DNA from: Spirochaetia bacterium
GTDB taxonomy: Bacteria > Spirochaetota > Spirochaetia > DSM-2461
Assembly (NCBI GenBank): GCA_963666985.2
Contig: CAXXIA010000003.1
Location: forward strand, 64,001 to 128,000
Reading direction: 5' to 3'
Length of the DNA: 64,000 nucleotides
The translations under genes were made by a program, and so were the position numbers. Positions 18,545 through 55,885 of this stretch are shown piece by piece; position 1 is the first letter of the stretch, and the number at the start of each line of letters is the position of its first letter. Under the pieces are notes generated by a model. It worked only from the letters and a program-made list of their open reading frames with translations, did not search any database and had not been told where the DNA came from.

Positions 18545-18636
18545 TCCGTTCGTATGTGCGCCCCAAAGGGATGTTCCCATCATAAATAAAGCATTATCAT
18601 AGATAAAATGAATTATATTGATGATAGAAATAGACA

Positions 18637-19557
18637 ATGCGAATGTTAAATGACAGCTTTACGGCGAATCTCGAGTACTACAAGGTTTTCTACTATGTGG
18701 CAAAATGCGGGAATATTACCGCTGCAGCAAACGAGCTCTTCCTTACTCAGCCGAGCATTACCAAGGCAATTAAAAATTTGGAACAGCAGCTGGGCTGCAC
18801 CCTTTTTGTCAGAACAAAACGGGGAGTGCTGCTGACTCCCGAGGGAAAAACACTGTGGCGGAAAATCGAGCCGGCCTGCCGGCTTATCATTTCCGCGGAA
18901 AAAGAGCTTGAGGATATTAAGTCCGTAAACGGCGGAAAACTGAGCATTGCATCGACCGAAATGAGCTTCAAAACATATGTGTTACCTGCTCTTGAATCAT
19001 TTCTGAAGGATCATCCGGATATCAAAATCAAGTTTGTTAATGCACTGAATGAACAGATTATCGATATGCTGAAGAAAGGAATGGTTGATCTTGCAATCCT
19101 GCACGAACCCTTTGAACTGGATGAAGAGATGGATACGATTAAAATAGACACGATCGAAGAGTATATGGTTGCGGGCCCCAGATACGCATATCTTTCGGAG
19201 GAAACCAGAGATATTTCGGAGCTCAAGGATTTTTCATTTATTTCCATGCCGGAAGGCTCTTCAACCAAGAATTATCTGAAAGATTATTTCTTTCGGCATA
19301 ATATGAACTTTGAACCGGATATTGAACTCACGACAATTGAATTGGCCGTTCAGGCGGTTGAAAGTAATTTCGGCATCGGTATTCTGCCTGAAAAAGTCAT
19401 AAGAGAAAAAATACAAACAGGGAAACTGTTTGAGGTGAAACTCGCCGATAAATTACCGGAGAGACGGGCCTATCTGATTACCAACAGGAAGCTTTCACCG
19501 TCCATTACAGCCAGGGCATTTATAAAAGAATATTTAGAGCGGGAAGAAATGCTTTGA
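18637..19557 (+). CDS. LysR family transcriptional regulator
   Basis: HTH NITAAANELFLTQPSITKAIKNLE..LG..LF.R..RG..LT; divergent from the Mo enzyme. True start may be a few codons downstream. Confidence 0.93.
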   Translation: MRMLNDSFTANLEYYKVFYYVAKCGNITAAANELFLTQPSITKAIKNLEQQLGCTLFVRTKRGVLLTPEGKTLWRKIEPACRLIISAEKELEDIKSVNGGKLSIASTEMSFKTYVLPALESFLKDHPDIKIKFVNALNEQIIDMLKKGMVDLAILHEPFELDEEMDTIKIDTIEEYMVAGPRYAYLSEETRDISELKDFSFISMPEGSSTKNYLKDYFFRHNMNFEPDIELTTIELAVQAVESNFGIGILPEKVIREKIQTGKLFEVKLADKLPERRAYLITNRKLSPSITARAFIKEYLEREEML

Positions 19558-19695
19558 ATGCCGGAGGGCTTCACTCATTTTACCCTACCGTCCGCATTAA
19601 AGCCGAATAGCCGGATATCACTGCCTCCCTAGGAGTTCACCCGACGGATTATCACTCCGGTTAAAAACAGAATCCGGCGCCCCGGCCGAAATCCT

Positions 19696-19769
19696 GCCGG
19701 TGATTTGCTCGGGATTCCTCTCTTGAACCATGTTGTCTCTACTCTTAACGGATACTACAGTTTTTTGGG
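19696..19769 (+). repeat. Degenerate duplicate of the radC 3' end (att-like remnant)
   Basis: Translates AGDLLGIPLLNHVVSTLNGYYSFL versus RadC AGDLLGIPLLDHVIFTHKGYYSFL. Confidence 0.85.
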
Positions 19770-19850
19770 AAACGACGCGGTGCGGCCGTTTAGCCGTATG
19801 TGTACATTTTTATGCTCGACAATCGCAGAGAAGACAATAATGAAGTTTGG

Positions 19851-21302
19851 TTATTCCTCAACAATCTCGAATTGCCCCATCATTCCATTGTCCTCGTGCT
19901 CAAGAAGATGACAATGATACATATAGACTCCGGGATACGAATGAAAACGGATAATAACGCGAATCTGATCGCCCGGCCAAAGCAGTACGGTATCTTTCCA
20001 TCCGGAAAGTTCCGGCGGCGGAGATTTTCCATTGATATCAAGAATCTGAAACTGAACGGCATGGATATGAAAACTGTGGGGCTGACTCATCATTCCGCTC
20101 ATTCCGCCGCCGCCCATACCGTCAATATTCACAATGTGCCAGATTTCCGTATCGCCAAGCCGAACAACCTCATCGATACGATTCATATTCATCTGCCGCC
20201 CGTTGATGAACATTCTCCCGCCCATACCGAACTGAAGTTCAAACCGCCGTGTTAACCGTGCCTCACTCTCTTGGATTGGCTCAATTGAAGTAAGATATTC
20301 AGGAACGGATAGAAACTCAGCATCTTGATTCCCGATATGGAATTCCATCGCGGTATAGGTATTTCGGCCGTTAGTATCGGCGACAAGCCGAACGGTTTCG
20401 GAATCAGCGCTTGCGAAATCAATAAGAACCTCAGCCCTTTCACCGGGTGAAAGAATAATGGACTCCAACGGTACGGGCCGCTCCAAAAAGCCGCCGTCCG
20501 ATGCAATCTGATAAAGGGAATCAACGCCGTCGAAGCGGATACGAAGTAAGGTCGAATTGGACCCGTTCAGAAGACGGAGCCGAGATAAACCGCGGGGGAC
20601 ATCGGCATAGGGCTCAACGGAACCGTTCACCAGGAGCCGATTGCCGAAATAGCCGTGCATCAAGTCCGGCATCCCCGGACGATAATCAAACCTCCCCTCT
20701 CCGTCGAAACGCCGCTCCTGCAGAATAATGGGAAGATCATCGACTCCATATTCATGCGGAATTTGAAGACGATCGGAAACCTCGTCGTCAATTATCAGCA
20801 TCCCGGCCAATCCTTTATAGACTTGTTCGCCGGTCGTTTTAATAAAATGCGGATGATACCACAGTGTCGCGGCCTGCTGACGGACTCTGAATTGAGCGGT
20901 CCAAGAACGTCGAGGACGAATTCCTTGATGAGGTCCGCCGTCGGATTCCGCCGGAACATCCGCTCCATGCCAATGAACCGTTGTCGGGTTATTCAGGTGA
21001 TTGAAAACCGTAATGGAAATACGATCATTACGCCGAACCCGTATCGTCGGCCCCAGGTAATTCCCGTTATACCCCATGGTAGAGGTTGTTGTTCCATCGA
21101 AAAAATCGGTCTCACCTTTTTGGGCGGTTAGGATGAAATTTTTCGTACCGTCACTTGATGTCCGATACTCAAGCAAGGAAGGAATCGGCAAAGGATTTTT
21201 GGATTCAAGGCTTGATGCCGGATTCATGAAAACGAGGAACAAGATTCCGAGAAGAACGAATCTCATCCGATCATGATTCTCTAAGAATCGGATTCCACTC
21301 AT
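19851..21302 (-). CDS. Multicopper oxidase (CueO-like), exported
   Basis: All four Cu motifs: HWH, WYHPH, HSFHIH, HCHLLEHEDNGMM; Met-rich loop; hydrophobic signal peptide. Start uncertain (21302 or 21266). Confidence 0.92.
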   Translation of the reverse strand: MSGIRFLENHDRMRFVLLGILFLVFMNPASSLESKNPLPIPSLLEYRTSSDGTKNFILTAQKGETDFFDGTTTSTMGYNGNYLGPTIRVRRNDRISITVFNHLNNPTTVHWHGADVPAESDGGPHQGIRPRRSWTAQFRVRQQAATLWYHPHFIKTTGEQVYKGLAGMLIIDDEVSDRLQIPHEYGVDDLPIILQERRFDGEGRFDYRPGMPDLMHGYFGNRLLVNGSVEPYADVPRGLSRLRLLNGSNSTLLRIRFDGVDSLYQIASDGGFLERPVPLESIILSPGERAEVLIDFASADSETVRLVADTNGRNTYTAMEFHIGNQDAEFLSVPEYLTSIEPIQESEARLTRRFELQFGMGGRMFINGRQMNMNRIDEVVRLGDTEIWHIVNIDGMGGGGMSGMMSQPHSFHIHAVQFQILDINGKSPPPELSGWKDTVLLWPGDQIRVIIRFHSYPGVYMYHCHLLEHEDNGMMGQFEIVEE

Positions 21303-21394
21303 TGAGTTATGGCCCTTCATAATTTTCAATTATAAGAGTCTGAGCGGAATATTTAAAATTTAACCATCACCGAATTCCCGTGAACGGTATGAAC

Positions 21395-29989: not shown

Positions 29990-30860
29990 CGTAATCTCTC
30001 CGCGGAAGCGATACGTGCGACTTTGTCGCCGAGAAGGTTCAGCGAAATCGTTACCAGAAAAAGCAGGGTTCCGAAGGCGAAGATGGTATTCTGTCCTCCG
30101 GATCCGGTGCGAAGAAGAAAACCGGTGATGGTCTCCGCCGCCGCAAGAACATCATGGGTTTGTCTGGGCCGGCTCCGGCCGCCATACCGACGATAATGGA
30201 TTCACCGAGGGCCCGTGCGAACCCTAAAAGAACCGCCGAGAAAAAGCCCGGAAGAGCGTTCGGAAGAACAATACGCAGGAGCGTTTCGGCCTTCGTTGCT
30301 CCCAGGGCCATGGCCGCCGTACGGATATCCGCCTGTGTTTCCTCAAGAGCGGAGGCAAGCAGACCCGTGACATACGGTGTGAGGAAAATCCCCAAAACCA
30401 ATCCGGCCGACAGGGTGTTGTACGGCTGTACTCTTCCCTCTCCGAAAATCCCCTGAAGAAGCGGAGTAACGAACATCAGGGCGAACAGCCCGTAAATAAC
30501 GGCCGGAATGGATGATAATATTTCCTGAATGAGTCGAAACCGCCTTTTCGAATCATCGGGAGCATAATCGCTTATATAGAGGGCAAGAGCCAAAGACCAG
30601 GGAACGGCGAACAGCACGGCGATGAGGGCCGTTCGAAGCGAGGCGCCGATAAAAGCGCGGGCACCGTAGGCTCCGGTTTGGGGATTCCACGCCGCTTTGA
30701 AGAGGAACTCGCCGAAAGGAACATTCCCTTCACGGAAAAATCGTATCGCGCCTCCGGCCATAACGAACACGAGAAGAGCCAGAAGAAAGACCGAAAGCAA
30801 AGCGCCGAAACGGAGAAAAATCACTCCGATCGACGGTATGCGGAGCCGGAAGGATTTCAT
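29986..30860 (-). pseudogene. pstC: Phosphate ABC transporter permease PstC; one apparent frameshift near 30160 (probably sequencing error)
   Basis: EILSSIPAVIYGLF, AAMALGATK.ET, ARALGES. The alternate frame resumes AETITGF...FAFGTLLFLVTISLN and stops at a TGA overlapping the pstA ATG. Confidence 0.88.
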
Positions 30861-30864
30861 GGCT

Positions 30865-31751
30865 TTATTGATCCTCTTCCAAAGACGAGAGCACCCGTAA
30901 ACCGTCCGCGATGACTTTATTGGAAGGAGGCAGAAATCCCGGAGGTTTATCTCCGGCGGCGACCGATTCCAAAACGAATCGAACGAAATCCTCCGCTATA
31001 ACGGATGTTTTTTCATCCGCGGCGTCGAAATAAAGATACAAAGGTCTGGATAAAGGATAATCGGAGCCGTCCTCGGGCAGGAATCCATCGATACTCAGTA
31101 TCGTCAGCTCATCTTTTCGATCCGCATAATACGAATAACCGAAAAAAACCCAAGGCCCACGGATCCCCGAGAAGTCCCTGAACGAGAACATGATCATCCT
31201 CGGAAAGCTGCAGGCCGGAAGAAGAGAGGATGGAGCCGGCAAATCCGCTGAAAAGAGTCGAAACGATAAAGTCGAACGTCCCCGAGTCCTGTCCCGGATA
31301 ATATTTTTCTATGGGTTCGTCCGGCCATTCAAGACGAACTTCGCCCCACGTATCGGATGTAAGGAGCTTCGGCAATTCCGCCATGGAGACATCATCGGAA
31401 ACGCCTCCTCCCGTACACACGGCAACGGCATCCATGGCCACGACAATCCCTACGGTTTCTTTCCCGAGCGATATCGCTTCCATTTTTTCTTTCATCGTCA
31501 TCGCCCGCGAGGCCGAAACCACATCACATTCATTATGAAGATATCGGCGGATTCCGGCACCGGAGCCGATGGAATCCAAAGAGACGGTTCCCTCAAATCC
31601 CGATTGCACATACTTATCGAGCATGATTTCAATCAACGGCGCCAGAGTCGAGGAACCGGAAACGGAAAAAACCTTTTGAGCGCTCTTCCCTAAAACAGGA
31701 CGTGGTCAAACAAACAAAAAAAGTTAGGATAAACAAAATATAAGTACGCAT
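30865..31751 (-). pseudogene. pstS: Phosphate-binding lipoprotein PstS; two apparent frameshifts at A/T runs (~31715 and ~31145)
   Basis: Joined frames give a signal peptide with LTTSC, then SGSSTLAP, GSGAG, ASR, SGTFDF, GFFGYSY, YPLSRPLY. Confidence 0.88.
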
Positions 31752-31768
31752 GGAGACTCCAAATAATC

Positions 31769-31816
31769 AGTCTACGATGATTGCTGGGTGTGAGGGTTAT
31801 GTTAACCGAATGTTAA
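31769..31816 (-). promoter_or_regulatory. Pho-box-like direct repeats and -10 element upstream of pstS
   Basis: Minus strand TTAACAT-N4-TTAACAT-N4-CTCACAC (11-bp period), then TAGACT 13 bp downstream. Confidence 0.6.
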
Positions 31817-31899
31817 TTTAAGATGAGCAATCGATGCTGCCCCGCAAAAATCCTCCTCATTCCTGATTTTTCCACTTATTCATGTCCCATAGATACTTG

Positions 31900-32006
31900 A
31901 GGCGATTTCAAAAATCAATGATTTTTGAAATGAAGCTCTTCCGAACGGATTCGGAGTAATTTCGGCCGCCGCCGACAAACAATTTCATGAATTAGTTAAA
32001 GTATCT
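31900..32006. repeat. ~107-bp structured dispersed repeat, copy 2
   Basis: AGGCGATTTCAAAAATCAATGATTTTTGAAATG ... ATTTCGGCC ... CAATTTCAT, colinear with 22561-22667. Confidence 0.7.
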
Positions 32007-32109
32007 TCTTAAAGCTTAATGCTTAAAACTTAGTGTTCCGATTCGCCGCTCTTTCGGCCCGGCGGTGAAATTCAATCTTCCGCATGATTTCCCTGCCGCT
32101 TAGGCTATA

Positions 32110-33724
32110 ATGGGCCACATGGAAGCCGATCATCCCGAACTCCACGGTTTTTCCCTGCGTTACATGGACGGATGGGCCGTGCTCATCGTACCGCCGAAAT
32201 CGGAACGTTCAAGACCTGTCTACGCCGACGACATCTCGGCGCGGATGAAAATACTGAATATTCCCTCCGTACCGGCCAAAATGATACGAAACATCATTGC
32301 GGAGGGAACAGGCAAGCCCGTTCCTCTTGTGAAATGGGCCGCCGGAGCCTCCCTGAACGCCCGGATGACGGTTACCGTGGATGAAGACGGGATGAAAGCT
32401 TATGCCGACGTAATTCCGGCAAAACCCGGCGGAGCTTCATTAAGTCCGAATACCGTTAAGGCCGCACTGGAGGACGCCGGAGTATCCAGAGGGCTGAAAA
32501 GGGATTGCTATCGATAATATTCTCGCCTACCCCGTAGCCGCCGAGAATATTCTTATCGCCGAAGGGAAAGCCGCGAAGAACGGCCGGACGCGGCGGACAG
32601 AATGCCGATTCGTAACCGAACGGGGTAAACCCTGGAAAGAAGCCCTCCGGCGGACGGATTGATTTGAAGGACCTTCATTTCATTCAGAACAGGAAAGCCG
32701 GAGATCTTCTGGCCCGCATCGTACCCGCCGTTCCCTCCGAAGACGGATATAATGTCTTCGGAGAAGTGATTGAAGCCGAAGAACCCGTTCAGGAAATTCT
32801 TTTGGAAGCCGGTGAGGGAGTTCGTGCGGACGAAGACGGATTGACGGCCGAAATCGACGGAAACGTCCTCATCATCGACGGAGCCGTATGCGTTGAGCCG
32901 TCGGTAAACGTGAAAAACGTCGATTATTCAACGGGAAACATCGAATTCGACGGTTCGGTTTGCATCGAAGGGACCGTGGCCGACGGATTCACCGTCAAGG
33001 CCGAAGGAGAAATTCTTGTCGGGAAAACCGTCGGACGCGGACGTTTATCCGCCGGAAGAAACTTGGTGCTTCAGGCCGGAGTGGTGGGCGACGGTGAAGG
33101 ACACTGCGAGGCGGCGGCAGTCTGTACGCCAAATTCATTGAAAACGCAAAACCTCCGTCGCGGGAGACCTGATTGTAACCGAAGCCGTACTTCACTCCGA
33201 AAACGAAGTGGATGGAAACATGGTGCTCGACGAAGGCCGCGGAGAAATCGTCGGAGGCATCACCGTTCTCGGCGGAAACCTTACCTGTAAAAAAATCGGG
33301 GAATATTTACGCAGGACAAACCCGAATTTACATCGGCTGTCCGCCGGAAAAGCTCCGTTCGTATCATGAACTCGGCACGCGGCTTAAAGCGACCCGTGAA
33401 GAAACCGATGAACTGGAACGTCAGCTCGACTATCTCCGCTCGAAGAATGGAGCGAAAGAAGAAATCATGACTTTGGAGCGGGGAATCGGCGCGCGTTTGG
33501 AGGCATTGAAGGAACAAGCGGCGCGTCTGAAAGCGTTAAAGGAAAGTATTAAGGCGCCGGACGGAATCACCGTAACCGTTAAGGATCGAATCTATCCGGG
33601 AGCCGTTCTCTCATTCGGACTGGAAGAATACCCGTTGGGCGATAAGGGACTGGAACGGGCGGTTCTTCAGCGCAAAGGCGGACGAACCGTGATGCACGGA
33701 TATACGCCGGCAAAGGAAACATAA
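32110..33724 (+). pseudogene. fapA: FapA/DUF342 (flagellar assembly protein A) family; about 5 apparent frameshifts
   Basis: Pieces across frames: VDEDGMKAY, LIAEGK...NG, GRIDLKDL, VDYSTGNIEFDGSV.IEG.V..GF.VKA.G, AKFIENA, GEIVGG, IYPG; shifts near 32505, 32648, 33112, 33152 and 33298. Confidence 0.82.
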
Positions 33725-33823: not shown

Positions 33824-35972
33824 CTATTTTCGGTGCTTTATCTTCGTCGGTTCCCCAATGTACAAGAAGGTCCGTTTCGCAATGCTTGTTCCGTTCCAAA
33901 GTTTTTTCAAGAACGGCATAATCCAGTAATCCAGTCCGAAAGATTTGCCCGCGCCGCCCAGGAACGCTAAAGCCGCCGCCATATACCAGAAAATGGACGC
34001 ATCCGTCATCGCGCCGACAATGAGCATGATGCTGAAAACGAAGGATGCCGCCGCGGCCAGCCAGGTGAAAGCCCCGCCGATGAGCGCCAATCCGATAAGA
34101 ATCTCGAATACAACAATACCCGACTGAAAAAAGTGCGGAGCCAAGTTCACGGTATGCTGCGCCGCCCAGACATAAATGCCGAGGGGATTATCGAGGAGGG
34201 CACTCCCTCCGGAAACATGCCCGGCCGCTTCGACCGTCGCCGATGCCACCGCATCCGCGGCGTCCGCGACATGCGCGGCCGCAGAAGCAACCTGTGTTGC
34301 ACTTTCCGCGACGGCTTCGGATGCCGCGCTTACGGCATCGGCTCCACCATGGACGGCGCTCCGACGGCCTCCCAGCCACCCCCGACCACCGCATCCGCGG
34401 CGTCCGCGACATGCGCGGCCGCAGAAGCAACCTGTGTTGCACTTTCCGCGACGGCTTCGGATGCCGCGCTTACGGCATCGGCTCCACCATGGACGGCGGC
34501 TCCGACGGCCTGAGATGCCGCCGCGCTTCCCTCGGCGGCAACAGAAGCGCCGCTCACGGCATCGCCGCCCTGCGACCGGAACACTGACGAAATCATTCGC
34601 GCGATCCAGCCATCCGCCGAGCGCCTTCTTTATTCCTTGTATTAGCCACATCGTCCCGACATACATCCGCAGAGGCACAAGCCAATAGTTCGGAGTTTTC
34701 CAAGCGGCAAATCCCCCGATGAGGGACCGGTTGTTCCGGATATCAAGGATTTCATGCTTCAGATAGGCCCATACACCGTTCAGACCGACAACCCCGACTT
34801 GGTAGTAGAGATTAACCACGTGTTTCAGGGCCACGGCGAAGAATCCCGAGAGGGAGATGCCTCCGGTATGCGACACGGCGTATTTACTGCCGATGGAAAC
34901 CATGAAGCCGTGGTAGCGGCCCTTGTATTCGACTTCCCGGGCTTTTTTCCCGCGTCCCTCGGACTTTTCGAGAGCATCGATGATGTTGTGAGCGGCGGTT
35001 TCGGCGGTTTGCTCGGCCGCCTCAACAATCTGAGGATTCGGCCGTTCGTTCTCCAAAATCCAAACACCGTCTCCGGCAAGAAAGACGTTATCCCGTCCGG
35101 GGCTCCGCATGGTCCGATCCGCTTCCATGCGGCCGGCTTTGCCCGCCTTCAAATCCAGGCATCCCAGGAAAGAGCTGCCTTTCACTCCGCAAGTCCAAAC
35201 AAGAGTGGCCGCTTCCAGAGACGTTCCGTCTTTAAAATGGAACGCGCCTTCCTCGGCCTTGACGATCAGGGCATTCGTGCGGATCTCAACACCCTTTTTC
35301 TCCATATAGCGCGCGGCTTTCGCTCTCTGCTCCTCGGGAAGCATATCAAGGATATGTCCCAAAGCCTCGACGTTATAGATGGCCACCTCGTCTTCCGAAA
35401 GGTCGTATTTCCGGCATAAAGTCGGAAGGAACTCGATTAACTCACCCACCAGTTCCACACCGGTAAACCCGGCGCCTGCCACGGCAACGGTCATCAGTTT
35501 CCTGCGCTCGGCCGGATCGGGTTCCAATGAAGCCTCCTGAAATTTCGCTCAAGGGTCCCGCGAATCAAAGCGCGTCGTCAAGAGACCATAGGGATAACGT
35601 AAAATCCCGGATGCCCGGAATCCCGAAGTCGGCGGGTTCGCCGCCCGTCGATATAAGCACATAGTCGTAGGGATAGCGGCCGATGAATCCTTTAGCCTCG
35701 TTCGCCTCAAAATTCACACCGGTAATCTCGTCATGGATTACATTCACCCGAGTTCCTGAAAAAATTCGGTCATAGCTGATTTTCACCGAAGCCTGGGGCA
35801 CCCGGTCTCCGGCAATCTCATGAAGTTCGGTCATCAGAGTGTGGAACCGATTCTTGTCGACCAGCGTAATCTCCACATCCTTATCTTTCCGGTATTTTCG
35901 ATGGAGCGTTTTCGCCGCCTTGACGCCCGCATAACCTCCGCCAATAATCAGAATCCTTTTTCTCGGTGCCAT
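33824..35972 (-). pseudogene. ndh: Type II NADH dehydrogenase fused to a C-terminal DoxX-like membrane domain (Listeria Ndh2-like); frameshifts at ~35555, ~34569 and ~34358, probably sequencing errors
   Basis: ILIIGGGYAG, HTLMTELHE, VAGAGFTGVELVGEL, WTCGV, AGD, PQIVEAAEQTA, GFMVSIG; then PLRMYVG.MWL..G..K...GW and EILIGLALIGG.FTWLAA...GAGKSFGLDYW membrane domain. Confidence 0.88.
34246..34511. repeat. Near-perfect tandem duplication inside ndh (period 140 bp as read; 141 bp or 47 codons if one G is restored)
   Basis: 34246-34370 and 34386-34511 are identical except for one G missing at ~34358. Confidence 0.92.
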
Positions 35973-35998
35973 TGCTTTTTCCTTCGATTTTTTGTTTC

Positions 35999-36982
35999 TC
36001 ATCGATCACGATTTCCCAGTGTCGCCGCAAGATCCGCCAGAGCATCTTTCGCCGCACCATTCGGTAGCGCTTCGGTGCACATAATCGCGCGCCGTGTGTA
36101 ATCCTCGACATATGTCAGAGCCGCCGCCGCCCCGCCCACCTCAACAACGCGGCGGCGAATTTTCGCGGAACGCCTTTTCGACAAAGGTTTATCCAGAATC
36201 CCCTCGAATTTTTCAGGATTCCGCCGGACCGCCAAAATAAGCGGCAGGGTGGCGATGCCGTCACCCGAATCCTTGCCGACGGGTTTTCCCAAAGCCTCCG
36301 GACTCCCGCCGTAATCAAGGATGTCGTCGAGAATCTGAAATCCCATTCCCAGAGCGTAGCCGTAACTCCTCATCGCTCCGCAGACGGAGTCCGAACTTTC
36401 GCCGACCCGCGCCCCCGCATATGCGGCCATAAGAAAGAGCGACGCTGTTTTTCCGGCGGCCTTTCTCTTGTAGCTCCTTAATCCCGAACCTTTCGCGGGA
36501 ACGAGGATTAATTCGGATTCACAGAGTCTCCCGACGCCTGCAGAGAGAAGACGCGCCGATTCCGGAGAAGCAAAATCCGCGACAAGCCCAAAACAGCGTG
36601 TCAGTACGTAGTCTCCGGCCAATACCGCTTTCTTAACCCCGTGTGCCGTATGGAGAGTCGCAACACCTCGGCGCATGGGTGATGAATCGACGATATCATC
36701 GTGGATCAGGGAGGCCAAATGAAGAAGTTCAAGAGCGGAGGCCGCACGATAAGTCTTCTCGGCATCGAACTCGCCGAGCCTGGCTCCCAGTATAAGCAAG
36801 GTTGACCGAAGCATCTTTCCCGGGCTTTCCAGCAGAGAAGCCAGATCGCCGCCAAGTAGAGCCGGATCCGGGGATACGGTATTTTTAATCAGTCTGCGGA
36901 CCTCCGCGATATCATGTTCCAGATATGGATGCCGCAAGCGGAATTCGTCGATTGTATTGGAAGAAATCTTTTTAATAGTCAT
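35999..36982 (-). CDS. Polyprenyl diphosphate synthase (HepT/DmkB-like)
   Basis: GKMLR, ELLHLASLIHDDIVD...RRG, GKTASLF, FQILDDILD, GKPVGKD..G..TLP. Confidence 0.93.
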   Translation of the reverse strand: MTIKKISSNTIDEFRLRHPYLEHDIAEVRRLIKNTVSPDPALLGGDLASLLESPGKMLRSTLLILGARLGEFDAEKTYRAASALELLHLASLIHDDIVDSSPMRRGVATLHTAHGVKKAVLAGDYVLTRCFGLVADFASPESARLLSAGVGRLCESELILVPAKGSGLRSYKRKAAGKTASLFLMAAYAGARVGESSDSVCGAMRSYGYALGMGFQILDDILDYGGSPEALGKPVGKDSGDGIATLPLILAVRRNPEKFEGILDKPLSKRRSAKIRRRVVEVGGAAAALTYVEDYTRRAIMCTEALPNGAAKDALADLAATLGNRDR

Positions 36983-37101
36983 CCGTTAATTCTCCGAATC
37001 GACCCCTCTTAATATTAGCGTTTTACTATTATTTTAACACATCGAAGGATGAAAATACCCAAAATATCGGCCGATTTCAAGAAATGTTTCGGTATCGAGG
37101 G

Positions 37102-38022
37102 TTAATCCGCAAAAAGCTGCCGGGTATAAACAATGCCGATAAGAAGCATTGAGGCCAGAGCGAGAGTGAATGCAAGGAAAATACGCGAAATCCCCTGCAT
37201 GGAAATCCCTTTGGTCTCATGAGAGAATCCATTGCGATGCATCACGGAAAATTCCCGAACCGCGAAGCCGAAGAACGGTATGATAACAGCGGGGCTCCAA
37301 ATCGGAACCGGACCGAAAAGACCCGGGATTAACGGAAAAAGGAACGCCACCGCCGCTTCGGAGGCCGCGATGGCTTCACCGATTCGGCGTCCGACCATCA
37401 CTGAAAGGGTTTTCCTTCCCGCGGCGCGATCGCCGACGATATCGCAGGTATTGTTCACCGTAAGAACGGACGCAATGGCGAATGAAGAAGGGAGTGAGGC
37501 CATGAACACCGCCGAGTCGGGCCGGCCCGCTTGAACGTACCAAATAATGAGGAAAAAGGCCGATCCCAAAGTACCGCCTGCGAAAAACTCGCCCAAGGGC
37601 GTTCCCGAAAGGGGATGCCGACCTCCGTTGTAGAAATAACCCACTGCCATACAGCCGGCGCCTGCCGCCGCAACGGGCCATCCCGACAGGAACGCAAGCG
37701 CCAAGCCCAAAGGCACGGCCATGGCGAAAAGGCCGATTGAAACGAGCAGGGCCCAACCCCAAGGAACCCCTTCATGGACAACGACCTTGGACGCTTCTCT
37801 GTTATATGCCGGATCGTCCACGCCTCTACGGAAATCGAAATACGTGTTGAACGCCGTTGTCCCCATATCCACCAGAAGGGCGGCGATCAGCAATAAAGCC
37901 GCACGAACCGGTTCAATTCCGCCGGTTCGAAGCACGACATACAGACTTCCCAGAACATACGTGGAAATCGAGACAATCTTCGTCCGAATCTCGACGACCG
38001 ATAGAAATTGTCTTAAAGTCAT
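37102..38022 (-). CDS. menA: UbiA-family prenyltransferase, MenA/DmkA-like
   Basis: FL..VEIRTK, N.YFDF.RG.D, Y..G..P.S..PLGE, NNTCDI..D...GR.TL; multi-pass membrane protein. Confidence 0.85.
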   Translation of the reverse strand: MTLRQFLSVVEIRTKIVSISTYVLGSLYVVLRTGGIEPVRAALLLIAALLVDMGTTAFNTYFDFRRGVDDPAYNREASKVVVHEGVPWGWALLVSIGLFAMAVPLGLALAFLSGWPVAAAGAGCMAVGYFYNGGRHPLSGTPLGEFFAGGTLGSAFFLIIWYVQAGRPDSAVFMASLPSSFAIASVLTVNNTCDIVGDRAAGRKTLSVMVGRRIGEAIAASEAAVAFLFPLIPGLFGPVPIWSPAVIIPFFGFAVREFSVMHRNGFSHETKGISMQGISRIFLAFTLALASMLLIGIVYTRQLFAD

Positions 38023-38261
38023 TGCCAAAATCGCTTCACCTTTGCCCCTGCCGCTCTCCCATAAATTCCTTCCGGAAGCGGCGAGCGAAAAAAACGGCCA
38101 AATCGGAATAATCCTACTGAAATATGAAACACTTTCTCTTCTCTTGTAAAATGACCGGATTATCTATTACTATTTTAGTATTATTATATTTATGGTAATA
38201 TTTCAATCCGGCGTTGTTTCCCACAGAATTAGGAAGCGACGGACATAATGAGGAGATTACG

Positions 38262-39068
38262 ATGAAAAAACTGATTTTCGTTACACTGGTTCTGTTCGCG
38301 GCGGTTTCGGCATTCGCCGGAAATTGGACGGACGGATTATATTTCGCGCAAGACGACGCCTTCGGCCGAACCGGCTGGAAATCCAACGTTACATTGGAAG
38401 TCCGCAACGGACGCATCAGAAGCGCCGTCTGGAACGGAACGAAAATCAACGGCGGGATGGATAAAATATCGGCTTCCGAAGCCGGACGGTATCCGATGGT
38501 TCAGCAAGGCGGTGCCCGTGACGATTGGCACATCCAGGCGAAACGCGTACAGAACCACCTCCTGAAGACTCAGGATCCTACCCAGATTTCCTATTCCGAC
38601 GCAGAGGGTCATACCGACGCCATCTCGGGCGCCACCATCCACGTCAGAGAGTTCTTCATTCTGGCTCAGAAAGCCCTGGCCGCGGGACCTGTGGATCGCG
38701 GTCCATATCGGGACGGTTACTTCCAGGCGGAAGAGGCGGTTTTCTCGCAGCAGAGCGGCTGGAAATCCTTCGCCCAATTCACCGTGGTAAACGGCACCGT
38801 CGTCCAGGTAAACTGGAACGGTTTCCACAAAGACGGCGGAGAAAGCAAGAAAATCGTATCCCAAAACGGTGAATACGGGATGATGGCCAATGGCGGCGCT
38901 CAAGCCGAATGGCATGTCCAGGCAAACAATGTGGAAGAATATTATCTCCGTACCGGCGGCCGGCCGCCCAGATTCCCGGATAACTACCACACCGATGCGA
39001 TTTCCGGTGCCACGATTGGGGTTAAACCCCTTTACGCTCTGGCCGAACAAGCTCTTCGCCGGCGATAA
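38262..39068 (+). CDS. Exported protein with two FMN-binding (flavinylation) domains, PplA-like
   Basis: Signal peptide AVSAFA|G without Cys; two ~130-aa repeats (DG.Y.A...F...GW, V.NG....V.WNG, Y.M...G....W..QA), each ending DAISGATI (38616-38636 and 38994-39014). Confidence 0.9.
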   Translation: MKKLIFVTLVLFAAVSAFAGNWTDGLYFAQDDAFGRTGWKSNVTLEVRNGRIRSAVWNGTKINGGMDKISASEAGRYPMVQQGGARDDWHIQAKRVQNHLLKTQDPTQISYSDAEGHTDAISGATIHVREFFILAQKALAAGPVDRGPYRDGYFQAEEAVFSQQSGWKSFAQFTVVNGTVVQVNWNGFHKDGGESKKIVSQNGEYGMMANGGAQAEWHVQANNVEEYYLRTGGRPPRFPDNYHTDAISGATIGVKPLYALAEQALRRR

Positions 39069-39100: not shown

Positions 39101-40012
39101 TCAGCTCCGCGACGCATGTTCCCGCCCGATGAGCACTCCCGCGATAATAACCGCCAAGGCCGCAACGCTGACCGGCCGAATGGTTTCATGGAGCACCAGG
39201 GCTATCCATACCAGAGATAAAAAAGGCCCGATGTAAACCAAACCGGCAATCCTCGCGGGCCTCTCGGCGCGATGCAGGGCGGTGTTCCAAAGCAGAAACG
39301 TTATGCCCATCTCGAACAGGCCCACCCACACCGCGGCAATCCCGGAAATCGGTCCGGACGGAAACGGTGCGCCGCGCAGCAGCCAGAACGGCAGGAGTAC
39401 GACAGTCGCCGCGCTGAAACCGATGAAAAGCCTGAAAAGTCCGTCGATGGAGAGCCGAGTACCGGCAAGCCAATAAACGGCCCAAATCAGTCCGCTTCCC
39501 AGAGCCAAAAAAACGCCTGCCGAATCGAGTCCCTCAACGCCCTCCGGCCGATATGAAATCAGAACAATACCGGCCATTCCGAAAACCAGGGAAATCATCT
39601 CGCGAACCGTCGGCCTGCGCCCGGCCATCGGCGCCGCCAAAAGAGCCAGAAACACAGGCCATGTATAATTCAGCGGCTGGGCGGCCTGCGCCGGGAGACG
39701 ATCGTAAGCGGCAAAAAGAACCGCGTAATACAAAACGGGATTCAGCAGTCCGATCAGCGCGGAAAAAAGCACCGTTCGGGGTGCGGGGCGGGCCGCGGCA
39801 CCCGATGCTCCGGGGAGCCAAGATCCGGCCGTGAGTCTTCGGAGAACAAGAGCCGAACCGAGAGAGGCCCAGGAGACGAAACTCGCCAAGGCCACAAGAT
39901 CCATCGGCTCAAGTTCCCGCAGCGCCAGCTTGAACGCCGCGGCGACCGTGGACCACAAAGCCACGGCACCGGCCGCCGGAATCAAAGCGGACCTCTTATC
40001 CTCATCTCCCAT
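39101..40012 (-). CDS. DMT/EamA family transporter
   Basis: WSTVAAAFK, LNP.LYY..LF.AY..LPAQ.AQPLNYTWP, GLFEMGITF.LW; about 10 TM helices. Confidence 0.9.
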   Translation of the reverse strand: MGDEDKRSALIPAAGAVALWSTVAAAFKLALRELEPMDLVALASFVSWASLGSALVLRRLTAGSWLPGASGAAARPAPRTVLFSALIGLLNPVLYYAVLFAAYDRLPAQAAQPLNYTWPVFLALLAAPMAGRRPTVREMISLVFGMAGIVLISYRPEGVEGLDSAGVFLALGSGLIWAVYWLAGTRLSIDGLFRLFIGFSAATVVLLPFWLLRGAPFPSGPISGIAAVWVGLFEMGITFLLWNTALHRAERPARIAGLVYIGPFLSLVWIALVLHETIRPVSVAALAVIIAGVLIGREHASRS

Positions 40013-41015
40013 GCCGCGAATCGCCCTCTTCGCCATCCGGCTCCCCAAGCACAGCGGGCGCAGTGTCCTCACCCCCCGCAGACTTCACCGCCGGGCAGCC
40101 ATTATCGGCACCCGCGCCAAGAGCCTGTTCCACGGCACCCCCCGGCCCAATGGACAATCCACCCTCTTCGCCATCCGGCGCCGTTTCTTCCGCATCAGCC
40201 GGGCCAACGGAGAGGTCGACAGCCATTCGGTTCGGCACACCGACGGGCGGAAGATTTCCACCCAAAAAAGGTTCCGCCGCCGAAGCGCCCTCTTCCTCAT
40301 CCGGCGCCTTCAGATACTGAAGCTTTCGGAAAATCTTCTCCATGTGCCGCGCCTCGCGGACACTCAAGGATGCACGGGCCAGAATGTCCCGAAAATACCG
40401 GTCCGTGTGAAAACGGTCCGCACTTTTGAAATAATGCATCGCCTCAAGCGAGTCATGGATCACCGAAACCAAATGATCCACCTCTTCCCGTGCCACCGGT
40501 TCATATCCGCCGGTCTTCTCCCCCAGCGAACGGCGCCAAAAAGCGTAGGCCACCACCTGAACCGCATGGGAAAGATTCAGCGAAGGAAAATCGGGCGAAG
40601 AAGGAATATGACAAGCAACATTGCAGTGATTCAGCTCCTCATCGCTCAAACCCGTCCGCTCATTCCCGAACACCAGGGCAATCTCCCCCTCGGCAAGAGA
40701 AGCCGCCTTTTCGGCCAGCTCTTCGGGAAGCAGACTGAACCACTTGCGGCGCGCGCCCCGTCTCCGTGTAATCCCGGCCGAAAGCACCGTTCCCGCCAAA
40801 GCGTCTCCCAAACAATAGAACCGCTTGGCCCCGTCATAAATCTCACGGGCATGAATGGCCGCCTGATACACCTCGTCCTGATCGAACCACGTCGGCGAAA
40901 CCAGAACCAGCTGTGTCAGTCCCATGGACTTCATGGCCCGGCAGACCGCACCGACATTCCTCGCGCCCTCGGGCCGAGCCAGAACAACGCGAACCCGATC
41001 CAGCCGGCTATTCAT
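40002..41015 (-). CDS. trmJ: SPOUT tRNA/rRNA methyltransferase, TrmJ/LasT family, with a long acidic C-terminal tail
   Basis: VVL.RP....NVGAVCRAMKSMG, LVFGNERTGLS.EEL, SLNLSHAVQV. Confidence 0.88.
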   Translation of the reverse strand: MNSRLDRVRVVLARPEGARNVGAVCRAMKSMGLTQLVLVSPTWFDQDEVYQAAIHAREIYDGAKRFYCLGDALAGTVLSAGITRRRGARRKWFSLLPEELAEKAASLAEGEIALVFGNERTGLSDEELNHCNVACHIPSSPDFPSLNLSHAVQVVAYAFWRRSLGEKTGGYEPVAREEVDHLVSVIHDSLEAMHYFKSADRFHTDRYFRDILARASLSVREARHMEKIFRKLQYLKAPDEEEGASAAEPFLGGNLPPVGVPNRMAVDLSVGPADAEETAPDGEEGGLSIGPGGAVEQALGAGADNGCPAVKSAGGEDTAPAVLGEPDGEEGDSRHGR

Positions 41016-51673: not shown

Positions 51674-53110
51674 CTAAAATCCTCCGAAGTATTTTCGAGC
51701 GCCGATAACGGCATCAATCAGCCTGTCGATATCGCCGAGGGTGTTGTACGGCGCCAGAGAGGCCCGGGCCGTCGAGGGAATACCCATCAGACGCATGGCC
51801 GGCTGGGCGCAATGATGTCCGGAACGAACGGCGACATTTTCCCGACTCAGATACTGTGCCGCATCATGACTGTGAATACCTTCCAAGTTGAAGGAATAAA
51901 CCGCGCGGCGTTCGTCGGGATGTTCCGGGCCGTAGAGAGTCAGTCCGTCCACGGCTTCCAGTTTCTTTTGCATGGAAAGTTCAAGATAACGTTCCCGCTT
52001 TTCCAGAGCCTCAATGCCTTTGCCCATCATCCACTCAAGAGCGGCCGCCAATCCCACGGCCGCTTCGACATTCGGGGTACCGGCTTCGAATTTATAGGGA
52101 AGTTCGTTCCATGTGGTTTTCTCCGGCTTCACAACGGAAATCATTTCCCCGCCGCTCTGCCAGGGCGGCATTTTCTCCAGCCACTCTTCCCGTCCCCAAA
52201 GGGCGCCGGAACCCATGGGACCATAGACCTTATGACCGCTGAAAACCACAAAATCCGCACCGATCTTCCTCACGTCGATGGGCAAATGAGGTACGGATTG
52301 GGCCGCATCCAGAACCAGCGGTATGTTTCTCTCCCGGCACCATTGGGAAAGAATACGCACCGGATTAACCGTTCCGAAGGCATTCGAGACATGGGCCAAA
52401 GCGGCGATTTTCACGCGATCGGCCCGGCCGTCCGAAGCGATCGCTTCAAGAAAATTCATATCAAGTGTTCCGTCGGACAGGCCGGGAAGAAGCAAAAGCT
52501 CGGCGCCCTTTCGAAGGGCCGCCTGCTGCCAGGGAACGAAGTTGGAATGATGTTCCAGTGAACCGATCAGAACGATATCACCTTCTCCAAGGAGAAGCTC
52601 CGAAAGAGACCATGCCAGAAAATTCAGTCCCTCGGTGGCTCCCCTCGTAAAAATAATCTCCCGGGGCGAGGAGGCGCCGAGAAACGTCTCCACGGTTCGC
52701 CTTGCGTTTTCATACGCCAGGGTGGAACGTTCGGCCAAAGCGTATAGAGAACGGTGGACGTTGGCATTGCTTTCCCGGTAATAGCGTTCGACGGCATCCA
52801 GAACGGCCGCGGGTTTCTGAGTGGTGGCGGCGTTGTCCAAATAGACCAGATTCGGATTCGCCGCAAGAAGCGGAAATTCATCTTTGAGAGAATCGTTGAG
52901 GCGGATGGAACGCCCTTCGGCCGACTCGTCGGTTTCGACCGCTGAAACGCCGATTCCGCCGGGAACGGACGCACCCTGGCGAACGGACGCGGCGCGGCCG
53001 GCTTGGATAGGCGGCGAGGATTTGTCTTTGCCGAACCTTCCCAAAAAAGCATCGCCGATTCGCTCGTCCGGAATCATTCCATCTTTTGTATTACTGCCGT
53101 TCATCGTCAC
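51674..53110 (-). CDS. sufS: Cysteine desulfurase SufS with a ~65-aa N-terminal extension
   Basis: YLDNAATTQKP, EHHSN, DAAQS, FSGHK, EAGTP, RSGHHCAQP. Confidence 0.95.
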   Translation of the reverse strand: MTMNGSNTKDGMIPDERIGDAFLGRFGKDKSSPPIQAGRAASVRQGASVPGGIGVSAVETDESAEGRSIRLNDSLKDEFPLLAANPNLVYLDNAATTQKPAAVLDAVERYYRESNANVHRSLYALAERSTLAYENARRTVETFLGASSPREIIFTRGATEGLNFLAWSLSELLLGEGDIVLIGSLEHHSNFVPWQQAALRKGAELLLLPGLSDGTLDMNFLEAIASDGRADRVKIAALAHVSNAFGTVNPVRILSQWCRERNIPLVLDAAQSVPHLPIDVRKIGADFVVFSGHKVYGPMGSGALWGREEWLEKMPPWQSGGEMISVVKPEKTTWNELPYKFEAGTPNVEAAVGLAAALEWMMGKGIEALEKRERYLELSMQKKLEAVDGLTLYGPEHPDERRAVYSFNLEGIHSHDAAQYLSRENVAVRSGHHCAQPAMRLMGIPSTARASLAPYNTLGDIDRLIDAVIGARKYFGGF

Positions 53111-53119
53111 AATTCATTT

Positions 53120-54478
53120 TCACCCAACCGCAAGCGCCGCGTCCAGGTCTCCCGAGAGAATCTCCGCAACCTCTTCGGGAAGACCTTCAAGAGCTCCGCA
53201 AAGAAATCCCCGAATCAGTTCCCCGCGGGCCTCCTCGGGCGAGAACCCGCGGCTCTGCAGATAGAAGGTTTGGAGCGGATCGATTTTTCCGGAAGTGGAA
53301 CCGTGACTGCACTTCACATCGTCGGTAAGAATATCCAATTGCGGCAGAGAATCAGCGCGAGCTCCGTCGCCCAATAACAAGTTGTTGTTCGTCAGATACG
53401 CATCGGTTCCGGACGCATTGGGATCGACAACGATCAATCCCTGAAACACGCTTCTTGCGCCGGGGCTGACCGCGCCTTTGTAAAGCGCATTGGAAAAAGC
53501 TTTGGGAGCTCTATGCTCCTGGCGGGTTCCGATGTCCATATGCCGCCCAAAAGAGGCGACAAGGAGTCCGTTGAGAAGGGCCTCGGAACCCGGACCGTTC
53601 AAAACGGTCCGAACGCGGCTTTTCACCAGAGCTCCGCCGAAATGGGCTTCGTGAAAACGAAGGCGGGCATCACGAGCGGCCGAGAGCCTGTCATGAAGAA
53701 AGAAAACAACCCGATTACTCAATATCTGCCTGAGGATGATATTCACCGAAGAATCGGCGGCCGCTTCGGCGCTTAAGGCCGCGTTGATAATTGGAGTAAC
53801 GCTCTCGGGGAAATCCGGAGATCCTTCGAAAGACCAAAGCACCGAAAGAGAAGCGCTTTCTTCCGCTTCGATATGAAGATGAGGTAAGGAAATCAGAGGC
53901 TTGTTCTCATCCGGGAGAATAAGATGTTCTTCCACCAGTACGGGTTCGGTGATTTGAGAACCGCGGGAAACGCGGAGTACAAGAGATCCGGAAAGATCGC
54001 GCCAATGCCAAGCCGTAATCCTTTCCCGGGAGGAACGAAGTTCATCGGCTCCCATCCGTATAAGGCTCTCCGGGAAGTCCCCGGAATCGGCCCATTCAAC
54101 GGCCAGACCGGCCTCCGCGGCCTTCGGCGAAAGTGTAATGGAAACAGGCCGTCCGGCTTCGGTTACGATATGAGCCGCATAGTTCTCAAGCGATAAGCGG
54201 CCCTCCGAGCTTCCGCCGGCCGATGCTGAAACGTGTTCGTCGGTTTCCGGTCCGCCGGATTCAGAATCGGAACAGTCATACAGCGAATTCCGCTGGACGC
54301 GGGAGATTTCGGCGGCGGCACGATCGGCCCAGGTGGCTTCGGCGCCTCTTTCCAGAATGCCGTGAGGAAGAAGCCGGGAGAGATCCGTCCGCCGCCACTC
54401 TTCATCATCGGGCCTTGGCCAGTTTAAATTTTCAAACAACACCGAAGCTTCGGCCGTGAGGAGATTGTTAATTGCCAT
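53120..54478 (-). CDS. sufD: Fe-S assembly protein SufD
   Basis: EEWRRTDL, SVFQG.I.V, A...P.L.I..DDVKCSHG, FYLQSRG. Confidence 0.92.
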   Translation of the reverse strand: MAINNLLTAEASVLFENLNWPRPDDEEWRRTDLSRLLPHGILERGAEATWADRAAAEISRVQRNSLYDCSDSESGGPETDEHVSASAGGSSEGRLSLENYAAHIVTEAGRPVSITLSPKAAEAGLAVEWADSGDFPESLIRMGADELRSSRERITAWHWRDLSGSLVLRVSRGSQITEPVLVEEHLILPDENKPLISLPHLHIEAEESASLSVLWSFEGSPDFPESVTPIINAALSAEAAADSSVNIILRQILSNRVVFFLHDRLSAARDARLRFHEAHFGGALVKSRVRTVLNGPGSEALLNGLLVASFGRHMDIGTRQEHRAPKAFSNALYKGAVSPGARSVFQGLIVVDPNASGTDAYLTNNNLLLGDGARADSLPQLDILTDDVKCSHGSTSGKIDPLQTFYLQSRGFSPEEARGELIRGFLCGALEGLPEEVAEILSGDLDAALAVG

Positions 54479-55885
54479 TTATCCCACACTTCCTTCCATT
54501 TCAAGTTCAATGAGCCTATTGAGTTCCACGGCATATTCCATGGGCAGCTGCTTGACCAAAGGTTCGAGAAAACCATTGACGATCATCATCGATGCCTCTT
54601 CTTCACTGAGGCCCCGGGCCATCAGATAGAACAGCTGATCCTCGCTGATTCTGCTCACGAGAGCCTCATGCTCCATGGAGACATCTTCCGATTCTATTTC
54701 CATATAGGGAAATGTTCTGGTTATTGAAGTCTCATCCAAAAGCAGGGCATCGCAGATAACATGGCTCTTTACGTTCTTTAATCCCTCCGCCACTTTAACA
54801 AGACCTCGATAGGAGGCGATCCCGCCGTCCTTGCTGATGGATTTGCTGGTAATGACGCTGGACGTGTTCGAAGCTTTATGAACGGCTTTTCCTCCGGTAT
54901 CCTGTTCCTGCCCTCTTCCGCCGAACGCGATGGAAAGAATTTCGCCGTGAGCTCCTTCGCCCGTTAAATAGACCGCCGGGTACTTCATCGTCCGTTTGGA
55001 CCCGATGTTGCCGTCCACCCATTCCACCGCGGCGTTTTTTTTCACAAGGGCCCGCTGGGTTACCAAGTTGTACACATTCCCGGACCAATTTTGTATGGTC
55101 GTATAGCGAACCCGCGCGCCTTCTTCCGCGATGATTTCAACAACGGCGCTGTGCAGTAAATCGGTGGTATAGATTGGAGCGGTGCAGCCTTCAATGTAAT
55201 GAACGAAGCTGTTTTTATCGGCGATTATCAGGGTTCTCTCGAACTGGCCGAGATTCTCCGAATTGATGCGGAAATAGGATTGAAGAGGAATCTCGACTTT
55301 CACATTCGGCGGTATATAAAGAAACGTTCCGCCGGACCATGCCGCCGAGTTCAATGCGGAAAATTTGTTGTCGTTATAGGGAACGACTTTGCCGAAATAC
55401 TTTCGAACAAGATCCGGATGCCTGGCCACGGCCTCTTCCGGAGGCAGAAAGATAACGCCTTGTTCTTCCAAACCCGCCTTAATGGAATGGTACACCACTT
55501 CCGAATCGTATTGAGCTCCCATCCCCGCCAGAAATTTCCGTTCGGCTTCGGGAAGTCCCAGCTTGTCGTAAGTGTTCAGGATGTCTTCGGGAAGATCTTC
55601 CCAATTCGCCACTCCCTCATCAATCGGCTTGATATAGTAATACACATCATCGAAATCGAAATCTCCAATCTCGGCGCCCCAATTCGGCATGGGCTTTCGC
55701 CGAAAGGCACGCAAAGCCCGAAGACGGTATTCCAGCATCCATTCCGGTTCGTTTTTATGGGCGCTGATGGTCCGAATGATTTTTTCATTCAAGCCTTTCT
55801 CCGGTTTAAACACGGAAATTTCCGGATCGGAGAATCCGAATTGATAATCCGAGAGTCCGGAAACCGGCGCTTGAGTATCGATCAT
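54479..55885 (-). CDS. sufB: Fe-S assembly protein SufB
   Basis: AQYDSEVVY, GQFERTLII, EGCTAP, LHSAVVE, TMKYP, FYLM.RGL, EMEGSVG. Confidence 0.97.
   Translation of the reverse strand: MIDTQAPVSGLSDYQFGFSDPEISVFKPEKGLNEKIIRTISAHKNEPEWMLEYRLRALRAFRRKPMPNWGAEIGDFDFDDVYYYIKPIDEGVANWEDLPEDILNTYDKLGLPEAERKFLAGMGAQYDSEVVYHSIKAGLEEQGVIFLPPEEAVARHPDLVRKYFGKVVPYNDNKFSALNSAAWSGGTFLYIPPNVKVEIPLQSYFRINSENLGQFERTLIIADKNSFVHYIEGCTAPIYTTDLLHSAVVEIIAEEGARVRYTTIQNWSGNVYNLVTQRALVKKNAAVEWVDGNIGSKRTMKYPAVYLTGEGAHGEILSIAFGGRGQEQDTGGKAVHKASNTSSVITSKSISKDGGIASYRGLVKVAEGLKNVKSHVICDALLLDETSITRTFPYMEIESEDVSMEHEALVSRISEDQLFYLMARGLSEEEASMMIVNGFLEPLVKQLPMEYAVELNRLIELEMEGSVG

Follow-up and report, generated by a model that had tools for sequence, protein, structure and literature searches.

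The closest described system to the one considered here is flavin-based extracellular electron transfer (FLEET) in Listeria monocytogenes. It is encoded by fmnA-dmkA-fmnB-pplA and ndh2-eetA-eetB-dmkB, and the supply of flavin adenine dinucleotide (FAD) to ApbE by EetB is established there (PMC9973259; here and below, statements taken from papers refer to the passages of each that are drawn on). We have analysed a stretch of 64,000 nucleotides (the window), positions 64001-128000 of contig C3 of a 4.86 Mb genome that is in three contigs and 93% complete, in which four adjacent genes correspond to Ndh2, DmkB, DmkA and PplA. Counterparts of seven of the eight Listeria genes are found in the genome by best hit. 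Named best homologues from Spirochaetales, Spirochaetaceae and Sphaerochaeta, at 54-78% identity, support a spirochaete host. From this gene content we judge it on balance probable that the cluster specifies a spirochaete Ndh2-type flavin-based electron-export system with a full chain from NADH to the periplasm.

Some routes in the FLEET systems of Lactiplantibacillus plantarum and of Enterococcus faecalis work without PplA, while Ndh2 or Ndh3 and EetB are needed (PMC9888254, PMC9864754). Hederstedt makes three statements that matter below: the direct donor to Fe(III) is unknown, screens gave no gene outside the locus, and E. faecalis requires Ndh3 and EetB but not PplA (PMC9864754). Both organisms are monoderm with a surface-exposed lipoprotein, whereas in the spirochaete an outer membrane would enclose the flavoproteins.

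Genome surveys assign to an extracellular electron transfer (EET) class those clusters in which an NADH dehydrogenase anchored in the membrane has an exported ApbE or FMN-binding gene no more than five genes away (FMN, flavin mononucleotide); there are 553 such clusters in 547 genomes (PMC8238504). At least two of the K03885 rows in Data Set S1 of PMC9973259 (2023), on a count of 45 out of about 124 or more, are Spirochaetota entries with the EET label, one of the clusters comprising DmkB, Ndh, ApbE, EetB, EetA and a PplA-type gene. In 2024 flavin-based EET genes were claimed for the first time outside Gram-positive bacteria, in a Gram-negative phylum and with Nuo instead of Ndh2 (PMC11323493). 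An earlier note on this DNA had set a system characterised in Gram-positive bacteria in an apparent diderm; these two papers speak against its novelty there, and the present locus adds another member to a spirochaete set that is already catalogued. No experimental work on spirochaete members of the class, and no paper on quinone-based iron reduction in spirochaetes, was found in the literature searched. A spirochaete ApbE does act in a similar way in Treponema pallidum, in which Ftp places FMN on the periplasmic FMN-binding protein TP0171 (PMC4436053). The likeness is one of description, TP0171 being a lipoprotein of unknown role that the passages of PMC4436053 drawn on do not tie to an Ndh2 or quinone module.

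Identity of the four window genes

All four genes reported in the earlier note are present, as follows.

33824-36002, minus strand: ndh2, type II NADH dehydrogenase (NDH-2) with a C-terminal membrane tail (Pyr_redox_2, homology and tree)
34625-34684, minus strand: predicted first tail helix of Ndh2, with the DoxX-type pattern R-x-x-x-G-x-x-W-x-x-[QE]-G-x-x-K
33824-34237, minus strand: DoxX-like membrane helices closing Ndh2 (hydropathy; 85% identical to residues 558-695 of the intact homologue P0002)
35999-36982, minus strand: dmkB-like polyprenyl diphosphate synthase (PF00348), overlapping the start of ndh2
37102-38022, minus strand: dmkA-like 1,4-dihydroxy-2-naphthoate (DHNA) polyprenyltransferase (UbiA, PF01040)
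38262-39068, plus strand: PplA-like exported protein of 268 residues, divergently transcribed, with two FMN-binding-type domains
38616-38636, plus strand: DAISGAT, first canonical ApbE motif
38994-39014, plus strand: DAISGAT, second canonical ApbE motif

The Pyr_redox_2 domain of Ndh2 is encoded across two open reading frames (ORFs) and carries the motifs GGGYAG and GAGFTGVE. It scores 237 bits against Listeria Ndh2 and 97.5 against Ndh1, and the best hit is reciprocal. The Listeria comparison set consisted of the annotated Listeria locus and one chromosome-sized Listeria record; this record is unannotated at the paralogues, which we take to be Ndh1, HepT, IspA and MenA. A tree of 28 rows, built by a quick method, places the catalytic piece with Listeria and Enterococcus Ndh2 (Shimodaira-Hasegawa-like approximate likelihood ratio 97) and away from six short NDH-2s. 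The reciprocal best hit and the tree agree with the earlier note in identifying the protein as an Ndh2 orthologue and not as a housekeeping NDH-2. Spirochaete Ndh2s split into two clades (L051 and L054 versus L042-L049), one of them nested with clostridial Fusibacter and Vallitaleaceae, which suggests more than one acquisition.

The description of this protein as an NDH-2 fused to a DoxX-like domain stands in part. An NDH-2 with a hydrophobic tail is indeed encoded, but not as one ORF, and the DoxX label is weak: Pfam DoxX scores are 19-26 bits in intact homologues, and the window piece gives no match. The first tail helix was missed by a hydropathy scan at a threshold of 1.5; in its region R436, G440, W443, G447 and K450 are invariant across a 62-row alignment.

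The two halves of the PplA-like protein align to each other, each ending in DAISGAT, and the first half matches PDB 2KZX (E 6e-38). Among all six-frame ORFs of the genome, which hold 34 strict ApbE motifs (D-x-x-[S/T]-G-A-[S/T]), this is the only one with two. It thus has the two FMN-binding domains with ApbE motifs that mark PplA. Unlike Listeria PplA, to which it is 24% identical, it has no lipobox, and it scores 33 bits against a cut-off of 325 for the NCBIfam PplA model NF041941; we class it as PplA-like, not as PplA. The signal peptide is cleavable and ends in AFA-G with no cysteine in the signal region, so the protein is probably soluble in the periplasm. A cysteine is present in most relatives' copies. 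Several of the PplA-like relatives in loci L060, L086, L087, L089 and L045 have DAISGVS in place of G-A-[S/T], and spirochaete ApbE may accept looser motifs; the copies in L044 and L045 measure 433-448 residues.

As in Listeria, an NDH-2 with a membrane tail is combined with a two-FMN-domain PplA or PplA-like protein, and the two genes are divergently transcribed in both. By the operational definition of Meheust 2021 the locus falls in the EET class, a tailed NADH dehydrogenase lying three genes from an FMN_bind gene with a signal peptide; orthology to Listeria Ndh2 replaces the KEGG K03885 part of that definition.

A motif-rich loop in the Ndh2 tail

Inside the tail lies a feature that the earlier note overlooked. 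An Ala/Ser/Thr/Glu-rich stretch, 48-170 residues long in homologues, separates the first tail helix from the DoxX-like helices and holds several motifs that resemble flavinylation sites.

34235-34563, minus strand: motif loop, read in two frames
34543-34563, minus strand: DAVSGAS, the single strict motif of the window loop
34513-34533, minus strand: EGSAAAS
34459-34479 and 34319-34339, minus strand: DAVSAAS, duplicated by the repeat
34235-34255, minus strand: DAVASAT
34246-34498: perfect 113-nt direct repeat with 140-nt spacing, inside the ndh2 loop

Of 238 full-length homologues, 10 could not be anchored, and loop statistics were taken from the remaining 228. A relaxed pattern, [DE]-x-x-[STAG]-[GAST]-A-[ST], is present in 175 of the 228 loops with 315 copies in all, against 12.7 +/- 3.3 (at most 22) over 300 shuffles and 37 copies in the reversed loops. 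The strict motif is present in 8 loops, with 0.26 expected. The Asp or Glu stands constantly six residues ahead of the terminal Ser or Thr, and only two pieces among 35,917 six-frame ORFs, both from Ndh2, hold two relaxed motifs within 40 residues. Clostridial-type loops mostly have one core copy (94 of 112), frequently in the form VSGAS or VTGAT, and window-type loops mostly have two or more (95 of 116). The corresponding position reads AATSGAS in Listeria Ndh2 and VTTGAS in that of Enterococcus gilvus; the three to five motifs of the window loop thus compare with one degenerate copy in Listeria. The possibility that the motif is specific to spirochaetes was discarded, clostridial, Thermotogota, Listeria and Enterococcus rows all carrying it, and we conclude that it is a feature of the whole family.

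A tentative reading, for which we see nearly as much promise as doubt, is that Ndh2 is itself a substrate of ApbE, and that FMN on the loop takes electrons from quinol bound at the tail and so forms the step from quinone to the outside. The spirochaete loop, expanded to five or six motifs at most, would in this case be a flexible arm that carries several flavins and extends into the periplasm. Work on ApbE shows that a G-to-A change in the motif keeps about 50% flavinylation and that a seven-residue tag functions in surface loops (PMC12052999), and DGRSSAS is flavinylated (10.1101/2020.12.30.424822). A flavinylated loop would also explain why Enterococcus, and one route in L. plantarum, can do without PplA but not without EetB and Ndh, and, if true, would fit all three of the Hederstedt statements.

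Several observations weigh against attachment of FMN to the loop. The strict motif is found in only 8 of the 228 loops, the canonical Gly position holds Gly in 71 of 451 loop copies and mostly Ala or Ser in the others, and the Listeria copy lacks the Asp. Because the relaxed pattern was derived from the same related sequences, the shuffle test overstates its case, and the numbers speak for conservation of a motif and not for its carrying flavin. The sidedness of the loop is likewise a prediction: the NDH-2 domain is cytoplasmic and a single predicted helix comes after it, which would place the loop in the periplasm. It is quite conceivable, if not what we lean towards, that the system works as in Listeria and the loop is a flexible Ala/Ser-rich spacer, or is modified otherwise, for example by glycosylation, and carries no flavin. 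The scarcity of Gly and the variable length of the loop suit a spacer, as does the insufficiency of a minimal nine-residue motif in Trypanosoma (10.1101/2020.12.30.424822); the fixed Asp/Glu-to-Ser/Thr spacing, the excess of forward over reversed copies and the clostridial VSGAS and VTGAT forms do not.

The literature searched (subscription papers and preprint supplements apart) yielded no description of flavinylation motifs in the loop of Ndh2. The passages searched in published accounts of the EET class do not mention them, and the terms Ndh and Ndh2 are absent from the main text of PMC8238504, PMC11334425 and PMC12052999. The loop carries more significance than the locus itself, which is a modest extension of the catalogued system to another free-living spirochaete. 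Spirochaete Ndh2s, with several motif copies of which some are strict, are good substrates for testing loop flavinylation.

Helper genes, quinone supply and the proposed chain

Finding no EetA, EetB or FmnB/ApbE gene in the window, the earlier note had supposed that the route across the membrane may differ from that in Listeria. We reject a different route on these grounds, since the three genes sit on other contigs of the genome.

C1:206945-207781: ApbE/FmnB, best hit of Listeria FmnB
C2:1607975-1608280: EetA, best hit of Listeria EetA
C2:1607470-1607898: EetB, adjacent to eetA, best hit of Listeria EetB

ApbE, whose absence the earlier note had regarded as fatal to its proposal, is thus encoded. 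In reverse searches with Listeria Ndh2, DmkA, DmkB, PplA (24%, E 1e-7), FmnB, EetA and EetB, the top hit is in every case the gene proposed here. Unlike the Listeria genes, which form a single eight-gene cluster, the spirochaete parts are spread over three places. Listeria FmnA matches four ordinary EcfT genes only, all located elsewhere in the genome.

A spirochaete-specific membrane gene that directly follows eetB (L011:12635-13384, on C2) has no Pfam or NCBIfam match and gives a weak CbiQ/EcfT lead (Atlas 0.88); it is a possible stand-in for FmnA. The EetB entries for Sphaerochaeta in Data Set S1 of PMC9973259 are 355-420 residues long with nine helices, suggesting a fusion. About 10 kb from eetA and eetB, a gene for a NapH-like Fe-S membrane protein (L011:2470-3594) adjoins a small FMN_bind gene. 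At C2:1619314-1620111 and C2:2148473-2149243 the genome encodes two exported proteins that carry strict ApbE motifs and resemble DUF2271, with scores below the Pfam cut-off.

The DmkB-like protein carries DDIVD and DDILD, and its best Listeria match is DmkB at 177.5 bits, against 121.7 for HepT; it is this best-hit score that suggests the assignment. For the DmkA-like protein the best NCBIfam MenA models fall below cut-off, and the evidence comes from trees. In a tree of 27 rows it lies in a spirochaete subclade of its own, sister to the Listeria DmkA clade (support 100/100) and apart from housekeeping MenA. This reading depends on rooting by Thermomicrobium MenA, a long branch, and the 27 rows are what is left of 38 after removal of the wrong-frame L164, three long branches and seven near-duplicates. 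A search of genome contigs gave five spirochaete and 58 Bacilli loci, which were used as tree rows only. In L079 (7548-8465) and L085 (7561-8487) a highly divergent UbiA-family gene, outside both DmkA clades, stands ahead of ndh2 and dmkB. In Listeria record L090 dmkA is frameshifted and in L091 it is intact; both records are filed as plasmids and are chromosome-sized.

Overall, best hits together with the Ndh2 and DmkA trees bear out the correspondence to Listeria Ndh2, DmkB, DmkA and PplA that the earlier note had drawn. Its expectation that the quinone genes would group with the Listeria electron-transfer clades holds for DmkA; the DmkB tree does not place DmkB. Its notion of a dedicated chain, in the Listeria sense of one beside a housekeeping chain, is not upheld: apart from those in the window, no NDH-2 and no MenA-like gene was found in the genome, which also differs from Listeria in lacking menB. 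(Absences here and below mean not found among the searched genomes, some of which are incomplete.) menB scored below cut-off in the window genome and was found in none of 41 related genomes; the MqnA/D family was likewise found in none of the 41, nor mqnA in the window genome. The quinone head group is therefore probably taken from outside, much as L. plantarum obtains DHNA from outside (PMC9888254).

In the chain that we propose, DmkB would make the polyprenyl chain and DmkA would join it to environmental DHNA, giving demethylmenaquinone, which Ndh2 would reduce as it oxidises NADH. EetB would export FAD, and ApbE would attach FMN to the threonines of the two DAISGAT motifs of the PplA-like protein and probably also to one or more motifs of the outward Ndh2 loop. 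Electrons would then pass from quinol to loop FMN, to the FMN of the PplA-like protein and on to acceptors or shuttles such as free flavin, quinones and chelated Fe(III). These would be small and able to enter the periplasm, given that no multihaem conduit across the outer membrane was found. We infer both the covalent FMN and the reduction of external acceptors from sequence comparison. Such a system would probably allow a fermenting cell to dispose of electrons from NADH in the periplasm, and the locus suggests that fermenting spirochaetes can shed NADH with the help of scavenged quinone precursors.

The chain might instead stop in the periplasm and feed a specific reductase or an iron-assimilation step, reducing nothing outside the cell. 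The diderm host, the PplA-like protein without a lipid anchor and the failure to find any ORF with two or more CxxCH motifs in the genome would all suit this. So would the flavinylated reductases that are fed in the same way in Listeria and the Sphaerochaeta cluster in Data Set S1 that includes a lipoprotein with FMN_bind and FAD_binding_2 domains (both PMC9973259). We nevertheless think it improbable, since no FMN_bind-fused reductase was found in the window genome and its four best FAD_binding_2 proteins have no signal peptide as judged by eye.

Evidence on the export system also comes from related genomes, which are kin and not independent, so that the co-occurrence counts are purely descriptive. 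A long, tailed Ndh2 is present in 23 of the 41, including 3 of 13 other genomes of the same genus. Of 400 genomes sampled across the phylum, 16 have a long Ndh2 and another 119 have short NDH-2s only, at 26-32% identity. At 34 other spirochaete loci, some of them cut by contig ends, the neighbours of Ndh2 are DmkB (32), DmkA-like (13), ApbE (11), PplA-like (9) and EetA (4). The synteny expected by the earlier note is thus borne out for Ndh2 with DmkB, but all four window genes occur together at only four loci, three of these from one family. L044 unites six parts of the system and L045 seven: PplA-like, EetA, EetB, the membrane gene, ApbE, Ndh2 and DmkB. Genome-wide, PplA-like genes occur in 12 of the 23 genomes with a long Ndh2 and in none of the 18 others; for DmkA-like genes the figures are 17 and, weakly, 3.

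This distribution is also what might be expected if Ndh2, with scavenged naphthoquinone, mainly rebalanced NAD+/NADH or fed oxygen or free quinones at the membrane, the periplasmic flavoproteins being optional. The conserved core is Ndh2 with DmkB, PplA-like genes adjoining at far fewer loci; DHNA rescue in Listeria needs Ndh2 and not pplA, dmkA, eetA or fmnA (10.1101/2023.01.13.524026). We list here too that cytochrome bd was not found in the genome. However, the membrane tail and motif loop are kept across the Ndh2 family, PplA-like genes are confined to genomes with a long Ndh2, and ApbE adjoins Ndh2 at about a third of the loci, and we consider this explanation unlikely.

The export system that we favour has further points against it. 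PplA-like genes were not found in almost half of the long-Ndh2 genomes, and the gene beside eetB does not match Listeria FmnA. ApbE and EetB, found in 38 and 37 of the 41 related genomes with or without Ndh2, are general flavinylation machinery; Rnf- and Nqr-type operons in the genome (recognised by eye from translations and FMN_bind hits) would be clients too, so the two genes are necessary but not specific. The assignments within the quinone branch are also uneven. Pairwise scores (Listeria DmkA 114, Listeria MenA 102, other Bacilli MenA up to 133 bits) do not separate DmkA from Bacilli MenA, support in the larger DmkA tree of 38 rows is 83/99, and a DmkB tree with 18 rows gives no resolution.

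Frame breaks in ndh2 and neighbouring genes

Comparison with the intact homologue P0002 (tblastn) places frame changes in ndh2 near 35568, 35545, 34568 and ~34380. The assembly accordingly contains the ORFs 35565-36002 and 33824-35527, with more frame changes in the loop, and the 113-nt repeat there is either an assembly artefact or a recent expansion. Taken with the duplication, these breaks raise the alternative that ndh2 is a true pseudogene in a locus decaying in this strain. Two facts favour it: of 25 test genes 24 are intact and ndh2 is the one split, which also counts against a functional chain, and no long Ndh2 is found in 10 of the 13 other genomes of the genus. Yet the three pieces of ndh2 are 85%, 87% and 85% identical to P0002, and dmkA, dmkB and the PplA-like gene are intact. 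Contigs from three sequencing runs, which represent one study and no more than two samples, leave most of ndh2 uncovered, and only the one-base difference at 34568 was used: the additional base there is missing from a depth-2 contig of another sample, which may itself be in error.

Unrelated genes are broken in the same region (30-36 kb). In the 6-kb stretch shared with ndh2, at window 30051-33724, pstC appears shortened, pstS is split between two ORFs and fapA is divided among three. We conclude that the ndh2 frameshifts are most likely a local assembly or sequencing error, and regard decay of the locus as very improbable.

An EamA-family exporter is encoded at window 39101-40072, convergent with the PplA-like gene. 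Further away, window 16382-21329 and 51674-56724 encode a molybdopterin oxidoreductase, an exported multicopper oxidase and a SUF operon.

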